Positions 44,667 through 46,258 of a DNA stretch of 64,000 bases are shown here, in pieces. Made by a program: the position numbers and the translations under genes. The stretch lies in assembly GCF_901765095.1 (NCBI RefSeq), contig NC_044034.1:62690339-62754338 (forward strand), written 5' to 3'. The notes under the pieces were generated by a model. The model saw only the letters and a program-made list of their open reading frames with translations. It made no database searches and was not told where the DNA came from. This stretch comes from Microcaecilia unicolor. Taxonomy: Eukaryota. Each line of letters starts with the position of its first letter. The first letter of the stretch is position 1.

Positions 44667-46258
44667 AGTGGGGGAAATAAGTATTTGATCCCTTGCTGAT
44701 TTTATAAGTTTGCCCACTGACAAAGACATGAGCAGCCCATAATTGAAGGGTAGGTTATTGGTAACAGTGAGAGATAGCACATCACAAATTAAATCCGGAA
44801 AATCACATTGTGGAAAGTATATGAATTTATTTGCATTCTGCAGAGGGAAATAAGTATTTGATCCCCCACCAATCAGTAAGAGATCTGGCCCCTACAGACC
44901 AGGTAGATGCTCCAAATCAACTCGTTACCTGCATGACAGACAGCTGTCGGCAATGGTCACCTGTATGAAAGACACCTGTCCACAGACTCAGTGAATCAGT
45001 CAGACTCTAACCTCTACAAAATGGCCAAGAGCAAGGAGCTGTCTAAGGATGTCAGGGACAAGATCATACACCTGCACAAGGCTGGAATGGGCTACAAAAC
45101 CATCAGTAAGACGCTGGGCGAGAAGGAGACAACTGTTGGTGCCATAGTAAGAAAATGGAAGAAGTACAAAATGACTGTCAATCGACAAAGATCTGGGGCT
45201 CCACGCAAAATCTCACCTCGTGGGGTATCCTTGATCATGAGGAAGGTTAGAAATCAGCCTACAACTACAAGGGGGGAACTTGTCAATGATCTCAAGGCAG
45301 CTGGGACCACTGTCACCACGAAAACCATTGGTAACACATTACGACATAACGGATTGCAATCCTGCAGTGCCCGCAAGGTCCCCCTGCTCCGGAAGGCACA
45401 TGTGACGGCCCGTCTGAAGTTTGCCAGTGAACACCTGGATGATGCCGAGAGTGATTGGGAGAAGGTGCTGTGGTCAGATGAGACAAAAATTGAGCTCTTT
45501 GGCATGAACTCAACTCGCCGTGTTTGGAGGAAGAGAAATGCTGCCTATGACCCAAAGAACACCGTCCCCACTGTCAAGCATGGAGGTGGAAATGTTATGT
45601 TTTGGGGGTGTTTCTCTGCTAAGGGCACAGGACTACTTCACCGCATCAATGGGAGAATGGATGGGGCCATGTACCGTACAATTCTGAGTGACAACCTCCT
45701 TCCTTCCGCCAGGGCCTTAAAAATGGGTCGTGGCTGGGTCTTCCAGCACGACAATGACCCAAAACATACAGCCAAGGCAACAAAGGAGTGGCTCAGGAAG
45801 AAGCACATTAGGGTCATGGAGTGGCCTAGCCAGTCACCAGACCTTAATCCCATTGAAAACTTATGGAGGGAGCTGAAGATGCGAGTTGCCAAGCGACAGC
45901 CCAGAACTCTTAATGATTTAGAGATGATCTGCAAAGAGGAGTGGACCAAAATTCCTCCTGACATGTGTGCAAACCTCATCATCAACTACAGAAGAAGTCT
46001 GACCGCTGTGCTTGCCAACAAGGGTTTTGCCACCAAGTATTAGGTCTTGTTTGCCAGAGGGATTAAATACTTATTTCCCTCTGCAGAATGCAAATAAATT
46101 CATATACTTTCCACAATGTGATTTTCCGGATTTAATTTGTGATGTGCTATCTCTCACTGTTACCAATAACCTACCCTTCAATTATGGGCTGCTCATGTCT
46201 TTGTCAGTGGGCAAACTTACAAAATCAGCAAGGGATCAAATACTTATTTCCCCCACTG
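44667..46258 (+). mobile_element. Apparently intact Tc1/mariner-superfamily (Tc1-like, Sleeping-Beauty-type IR/DR) DNA transposon flanked by TA target-site duplication (44665-44666 and 46259-46260)
   Basis: The left end (cagtgggggaaataagtatttgatccc... 44667 to about 44868) and the right end (about 46062-46258, ...gggatcaaatacttatttcccccactg) are reverse complements of each other. They differ by only 1-2 mismatches over about 200 bp. Each end carries an inner copy of the 21-bp direct repeat gggaaataagtatttgatccc (IR/DR architecture). TA sits on both flanks. Confidence 0.9.
45021..46043 (+). CDS. Tc1-family DD34E transposase, 340 aa, intact ORF
   Basis: [33 protein letters not shown]... is collinear with Sleeping Beauty/Tc1 transposases (MGKSKEISQDLRKRIVDLHKSG...). 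The catalytic motifs [16 protein letters not shown] and [11 protein letters not shown] are all present. It ends ...GFATKY followed by a stop, as in SB (GNATKY). The ORF-track entry starts 10 codons earlier at a non-conserved Met. Confidence 0.9.

Follow-up and report, generated by a model that had tools for sequence, protein, structure and literature searches.

ZB (Tc1-8B_DR) is a zebrafish Tc1 transposon of ~1.6 kb with ~200-bp inverted repeats and a TA duplication, which encodes a transposase of 341 aa and is natively active by experiment (Shen et al., 2021, NAR 49: 2126). Sleeping Beauty (SB10/SB100X), reconstructed from salmonid Tc1 sequences, encodes a transposase of 340 aa and carries two direct repeats in each of its long inverted repeats. 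A survey of homologues of both systems distinguishes four clades, i.e. ZB and ZB-like, SB and SB-like, giving identities of 61% between ZB and ZB-like elements, 52–54% between the SB and ZB groups, and >80% within the ZB-like clade (Jia et al., 2022, Genes 13: 2239, PMC9777934). Its lists include ZB-Xentro, with terminal inverted repeats (TIRs) of 210 bp, and, on the ZB-like branch, ZB-Micuni from the caecilian Microcaecilia unicolor, for which Table S1 gives a length of 1597 bp, a 1023-bp coding sequence (CDS), a 340-aa product, TIRs of 200/200, CAGTG/CAGTG ends, DD34E and TA/TA. The same source credits ZB-Micuni with 5188 intact copies, more than in any other species surveyed, while counting 417 copies at >80% identity and >40% coverage in the same row, two figures that are mutually inconsistent; M. 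unicolor is the only caecilian host that it lists.

We analysed a 64-kb window of the M. unicolor genome (the window being the whole stretch of 64,000 nucleotides under study), in which a Tc1 element of 1593 bp with CAGTG...CACTG termini occupies positions 44666–46258. The element lies within the gene MPHOSPH8, whose exons were located on the + strand across the window by tblastn with the M. unicolor MPHOSPH8 protein (P0121). Within the exon bodies the match to M. unicolor XP_030056144.1 is 100%, even in exon 3, which is rich in lysine/glutamate and evolves fast; the high-scoring segment pairs themselves have identities of 92–98%, with every mismatch at their ends, where they run into introns. 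Coding exon 4 is found at about 31705–31806 and exon 5 starts at about 46889, which places the element in intron 4, on the strand of the gene and ~630 bp upstream of exon 5. It is thus intronic and outside the MPHOSPH8 coding sequence, and both neighbouring exons match the annotated protein without disruption; the insertion is most likely neutral for the host. The coordinates of the features are collected in Table 1.

Table 1. The Tc1 element and its insertion site in MPHOSPH8, in window positions.
Feature	Position	Strand	Basis or description
MPHOSPH8 intron 4, ~15 kb, full of transposable elements	31807–46888	+	tblastn exon borders
Left TA target-site duplication	44664–44665		junction reads ...GATA TA/CAGTG
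Left terminal inverted repeat, 200 bp, CAGTG start	44666–44865	+	198/200 paired with 46059–46258
Left outer direct repeat, presumed transposase binding site	44672–44692	+	exact 21-mer GGGAAATAAGTATTTGATCCC
Left inner direct repeat	44845–44865	+	exact copy of 21-mer GGGAAATAAGTATTTGATCCC
Presumed 5' UTR and promoter, left inverted repeat to ATG	44866–45020	+	defined by position only
Transposase ORF, 340 codons plus stop	45021–46043	+	without internal stop or frameshift
Right terminal inverted repeat, 200 bp, CACTG end	46059–46258	-	pairs with left arm
Right inner direct repeat, one mismatch, GGGAAATAAGTATTTAATCCC	46059–46079	-	21-mer search
Right outer direct repeat	46232–46252	-	exact 21-mer GGGAAATAAGTATTTGATCCC
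Right TA target-site duplication	46259–46260		junction reads CACTG/TA AGTATT
Predicted allele without the Tc1 element			flanks joined at single TA: ...GGATGATA-TA-AGTATTAG...

The architecture is that of a Tc1/mariner DD34E transposon, with TA/TA flanks and terminal inverted repeats. The initial annotation, which had set the start of the element at 44667, one base too late, had otherwise described this architecture well: it placed the element in MPHOSPH8 intron 4 between intact TA duplications and reported inverted repeats of ~200 bp that differ at one or two positions, each with a duplicated 21-bp site, and all of this is borne out. The two 200-nt inverted repeats differ at two positions, numbered 39 and 195 in the left repeat (A at 44704, opposite 46220, and G at 44860, opposite 46064). 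The 21-mer GGGAAATAAGTATTTGATCCC has four matches in the window, against none expected from 100 shuffles, with one copy at each edge of each inverted repeat and a spacing of 173 bp from outer to inner copy. This layout, an outer and an inner 21-mer per ~200-bp inverted repeat, is of the Sleeping Beauty type, and the direct repeats would be the sites bound by the transposase. From the end of the left inverted repeat to the ATG, the element has ~80% identity to the corresponding part of related elements (L001, see below). A gap of 15 bp separates the stop codon from the right inverted repeat; in Sleeping Beauty elements, by comparison, the 3' TIR is described as overlapping the ORF (PMC9777934). 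An AATAAA hexamer on the + strand within the right inverted repeat (46093–46098) is a candidate poly(A) signal only. The insertion site itself is a TA within the AT-rich context GATA-TA-AGTA, and ~135–205 bp upstream of it (44459–44530) a run of ~20 G gives way to low-complexity G/A and T/G sequence. Neither a second Tc1 copy nor a related empty site was found within the 64-kb window.

The transposase ORF carries the catalytic motifs WSDETK (residue 151), HDNDPKH (243) and NPIENLW (276), which supply the triad D153/D244/E279 with 34 residues from the second D to the E (DD34E), and ends in ...GFATKY, as the initial annotation had read from its stop-free 340-aa frame. The paired-like DNA-binding region that it had proposed at the N-terminus corresponds to two Pfam domains, HTH_SB (the Sleeping Beauty PAI helix-turn-helix, residues 1–52, E = 9e-25) and HTH_Tnp_Tc3_2 (the Tc3-type RED helix-turn-helix, residues 72–140, E = 4e-22), which are followed by DDE_3 (residues 149–300, E = 5e-15); all three exceed the curated cut-offs. 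Two observations that could have counted against an intact enzyme, a frameshift or a failure to align over the DDE domain, were not made: the frame is unbroken, and residues 114–340 align end to end and without gaps to the catalytic domain of SB100X (PDB 5cr4, E = 7e-89), with WSDETK, HDNDPKH and NPIENLW all in register. Between the domains we found the GRPR-like motif in the form GAPRK (residue 59), the same as in zebrafish ZB, as well as KVPLL (residue 119), the interdomain linker; the glycine-rich box is likewise present. The Ka/Ks of the transposase against its nearest database relative is 0.14, indicating that purifying selection acted through most of the history of the lineage from which this copy descends.

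Compared with the two experimental systems, the window element shares with ZB its size of ~1.6 kb, the ~200-bp inverted repeats, the TA duplication, the order of domains and the GAPRK motif, and the terminal 23 nt of the inverted repeats are alike (CAGCGGGGAAAATAAGTATTTGA in ZB, CAGTGGGGGAAATAAGTATTTGA in the window element). ZB differs in its 341-aa product, its CAGCG ends and its identity of only 60% in protein and 61% in coding sequence, and 60–61% identity makes ZB a sister clade rather than the same family. The two also differ in how they are known: ZB is active by experiment (Shen et al., 2021), whereas the window element is known from its sequence alone. With Sleeping Beauty the element shares two direct repeats per long inverted repeat, the 340-aa length, the identical D153/D244/E279 numbering and the ...KY C-terminus; the two differ in sequence, with 59% identity over the catalytic domain and, for an SB-family copy, ~54% over the coding sequence. 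The sequence of the Sleeping Beauty direct repeat is not known to be related to that of the window element.

The nearest relatives among the collections searched come from frogs and fish. The best matches in the protein collection are 81–82% identical and 340 aa long, and comprise a Xenopus tropicalis cluster of 171 members (P0010) and four Logan contigs (L001–L004), whose protein cluster also includes a protein from Prochilodus magdalenae. The same four contigs are the nearest relatives at the DNA level, with ~81% nucleotide identity that extends from end to end of the element and takes in its inverted repeats and inner direct repeat; the outer direct repeat of L001, CAGTGAGAGTAAAAAGTATTTGATCCC, differs from that of the window element. 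A divergence of ~18% implies that these frog and fish ZB-like relatives are different subfamilies. The exact transposase, in either its 340-aa (ATG) or its 350-aa (GTG) form, had no match in the protein collection, which seems to be without the transposable-element ORFs of this genome.

In metagenomes, a 28-mer from the end of the inverted repeat had no match in the scan, and the exact 21-mer direct repeat was found at seven loci (L005–L011; JGI contigs Ga0308020, Ga0209092, Ga0115008 and Ga0063089), presumably eukaryotic DNA in environmental samples. Four of these loci (L005, L006, L008 and L009) align to the Tc1 element at E <= 1e-6 with 70–80% identity, and no Tc1 copy closer than 80% was present among the metagenome contigs scanned. 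The matches illustrate how widely the 21-bp direct-repeat sequence is spread.

We also compared coding sequences, using the ZB sequence in the Shen et al. (2021) supplement and the SB-Angjap sequence in that of PMC9777934. Identity to the window coding sequence is 61.3% for ZB, 53.9% for SB-Angjap and 82.5% for L001. Set beside the between-clade and within-clade values of Jia et al. (2022), these levels fit the ZB-like clade, L001 being presumed ZB-like although it bears no label in the paper. The agreement with the ZB-Micuni entry of Table S1 extends to the species, the 1023-bp ORF, the 340 aa, the TIRs of 200/200, CAGTG, TA and DD34E. The tabulated length of 1597 bp exceeds the 1593 bp of the window element by 4 bp, a gap that we attribute to the counting of the two TA duplications, with which the lengths are equal. 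The listed representative is located on CABFKJ010014846.1 (2489–7508), the window element at MPHOSPH8, and the assignment rests on species, architecture and identity levels rather than on alignment to that representative. On these grounds we are highly confident that the window element is a genomic copy of ZB-Micuni, one that is structurally complete and could in principle mobilize itself. The family is therefore not new, having already been recorded in M. unicolor (Jia et al., 2022, PMC9777934), and since it is listed there with thousands of intact copies, the presence of one in this intron is ordinary. The initial annotation, in describing most Tc1 copies of vertebrates as dead fossils, made such elements seem rarer than they are, given that the survey reports 183 genomes with ZB-like copies that are intact.

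If the element works as Sleeping Beauty and ZB do, the PAI and RED helix-turn-helix domains would bind all four 21-bp direct repeats (a pair per 200-bp inverted repeat), and the transposase would pair both ends of the element. The DD34E RNase-H-like domain would then excise the element from its donor site, and integration would occur at a TA dinucleotide that becomes duplicated on either side; the window copy would have landed in this way at the TA of GATA-TA-AGTA in MPHOSPH8 intron 4. All of the sequence parts needed for transposition of the Sleeping Beauty/ZB type are present and intact in the window copy, which may be competent for transposition.

How long ago the element arrived is a separate matter. 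The initial annotation had taken the low divergence between the inverted repeats as evidence of a recent insertion, an argument that we reject: cut-and-paste elements carry their repeats along with them and do not regenerate them on insertion as LTR elements do, so that 2 mismatches in 200 describe the family and not the age of the MPHOSPH8 insertion. CpG observed/expected is 0.33 in the element vs. 0.44 in its flanks, a difference that would acquire value for dating only against a family consensus. The only evidence for youth within the window is the intact ORF. We modelled its neutral decay with ~3.9% of ORF substitutions creating a stop and indels set at 10% of the rate of substitutions; on these assumptions the ORF would remain uninterrupted with a probability of ~0.28 at 1% decay, 0.08 at 2%, 0.02 at 3% and 0.002 at 5%, and under this model an intact transposase ORF would be unlikely beyond about 2–3% decay. 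The MPHOSPH8 insertion is thus probably little decayed and young, and with thousands of intact sister copies reported (PMC9777934), a young insertion is the natural reading.

Youth and competence need not coincide, and the explanation that competes best with a self-mobile copy is that this one is young and nonetheless dead, its transposase disabled by missense changes or the copy silenced by the host, such that it would be mobilized only by transposase from other copies. We consider this a serious possibility, though less likely than not. To weigh it we aligned the window transposase with 61 full-length relatives and ZB. At columns conserved in at least 95% of sequences the window transposase departs from the rest at 6 of 160 positions (S4, I16, R124, V192, R264 and T296), and these substitutions could reduce transposase activity; seven further departures fall at columns of 85–95% conservation, among them Q56 and S326, which are seen in no aligned relative. 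One inner direct repeat, moreover, has a mismatch, and family-specific residues are indistinguishable from private mutations as long as no M. unicolor consensus is at hand. Against this, all six changes at the most conserved columns are conservative (S/T, I/V, R/K, V/I, R/K and T/N) and their number is near the median of four for the other aligned transposases, while the catalytic triad and GAPRK are intact, as are the KVPLL linker and glycine-rich box, and the frame has neither stops nor frameshifts.

Much less probable, in our estimation, is that the intactness is partly an artefact of assembly or polishing, in which multi-mapped reads would pull the copy toward the family consensus and mask private mutations. 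Such an effect is conceivable because the family is reported to be so numerous (PMC9777934), its near-identical 1.6-kb copies running to thousands, and the window itself shows no direct sign of it; the flanks of the element, however, are unique and its junctions clean, with an exact TA duplication, and the two differences kept between the inverted repeats argue against complete homogenization. Least credible of all is an old insertion whose ORF was kept by host selection, as a domesticated transposase, or by chance: a long intact ORF inside a conserved host gene is the one point in its favour, whereas the inverted repeats (198/200 matching) and the two TAs, features that a domesticated transposase normally loses, are preserved here, the element lies in an intron, outside the coding sequence of MPHOSPH8, chance survival is unlikely past ~3% decay, and thousands of intact family copies are reported in M. 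unicolor (PMC9777934).

For a young, structurally complete copy of ZB-Micuni, it may be asked whether the family is moving today. The proposal in the initial annotation of a currently or very recently active family is consistent with the 5188 intact copies listed for it (PMC9777934), while the inverted-repeat argument offered in its support falls away. A bolder and tentative reading, which we think rather unlikely in its entirety, would have the family, whose intact Tc1 copies outnumber those reported for any other vertebrate, still transposing in the germline with a naturally highly active transposase (in this copy or as the consensus); the family itself would have been acquired by horizontal transfer after the Microcaecilia lineage split from Geotrypetes and Rhinatrema, and the MPHOSPH8 insertion would be polymorphic.

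The window contains several other repeats. Also in intron 4, 1.2 kb from the Tc1 element, an uninterrupted LINE ORF of 1150 aa runs along the - strand (39985–43437). It encodes an endonuclease domain of the apurinic type (Exo_endo_phos, E = 2e-8) as well as one for reverse transcriptase (RVT_1, E = 9e-34), and its exact product had no match in the protein collection. Just upstream of the start codon, a 49-bp unit is repeated 3.1 times in tandem with 95% matches (43572–43721), and these units could be a promoter of repeated monomers in the 5' UTR of the LINE. These features suggest a second young, possibly active transposable element. The product of MPHOSPH8 is MPP8, which is the chromodomain subunit of HUSH, a complex that silences transposons. 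That intron 4 of the gene for a HUSH subunit holds both a Tc1 element and a LINE ORF, the former intact and the latter apparently so, is a curiosity and no evidence of an interaction.

Farther from the element lies a tandem array with 7.0 copies of a 78-bp unit, at 97% matches and free of indels (27524–28069). The array lies in frame within an ORF on the - strand (27409–28164) that resembles LINE endonuclease/reverse transcriptase and encodes a repeated 26-aa peptide, GDFTMPDVDWGIPAAGLSRRKGILDS; on both strands all three reading frames are open through it. ORF fragments derived from LINEs at 4239–4598 (-), 32924–33922 (-) and 52180–52701 (+) encode nearly identical peptides (MIVGMGRLSYEERLRRLGLFSLEKRRLRGDMIEVYKIMSG...) and are taken to be CR1-like 3' ends; no Pfam domain was found in the two of the three that were searched. 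One residue in ~100 aa separates the first two, a near-identity that points to another recently amplified retrotransposon family. At 22882–23002 there are short C/T-rich tandem repeats with units of 32 and 41 bp (85–87% matches), which give rise to several long, overlapping, proline-rich ORFs on both strands at 22600–23305; these ORFs are most likely low-complexity artefacts and not genes.

For annotation, we recommend that the element be masked under the label of a ZB-like Tc1/DD34E copy in MPHOSPH8 intron 4, and as a single locus it matters little otherwise. The caecilian family to which it is assigned reportedly has the highest intact copy number among ZB- and SB-related elements (PMC9777934), and a verified intact copy with both of its ends is a ready template for a donor/helper transposition assay. 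Young insertions of this kind are good presence/absence markers for caecilian population genetics and, should the doubtful reading of a still active family prove true, its transposase would be usable as a new gene-transfer tool.
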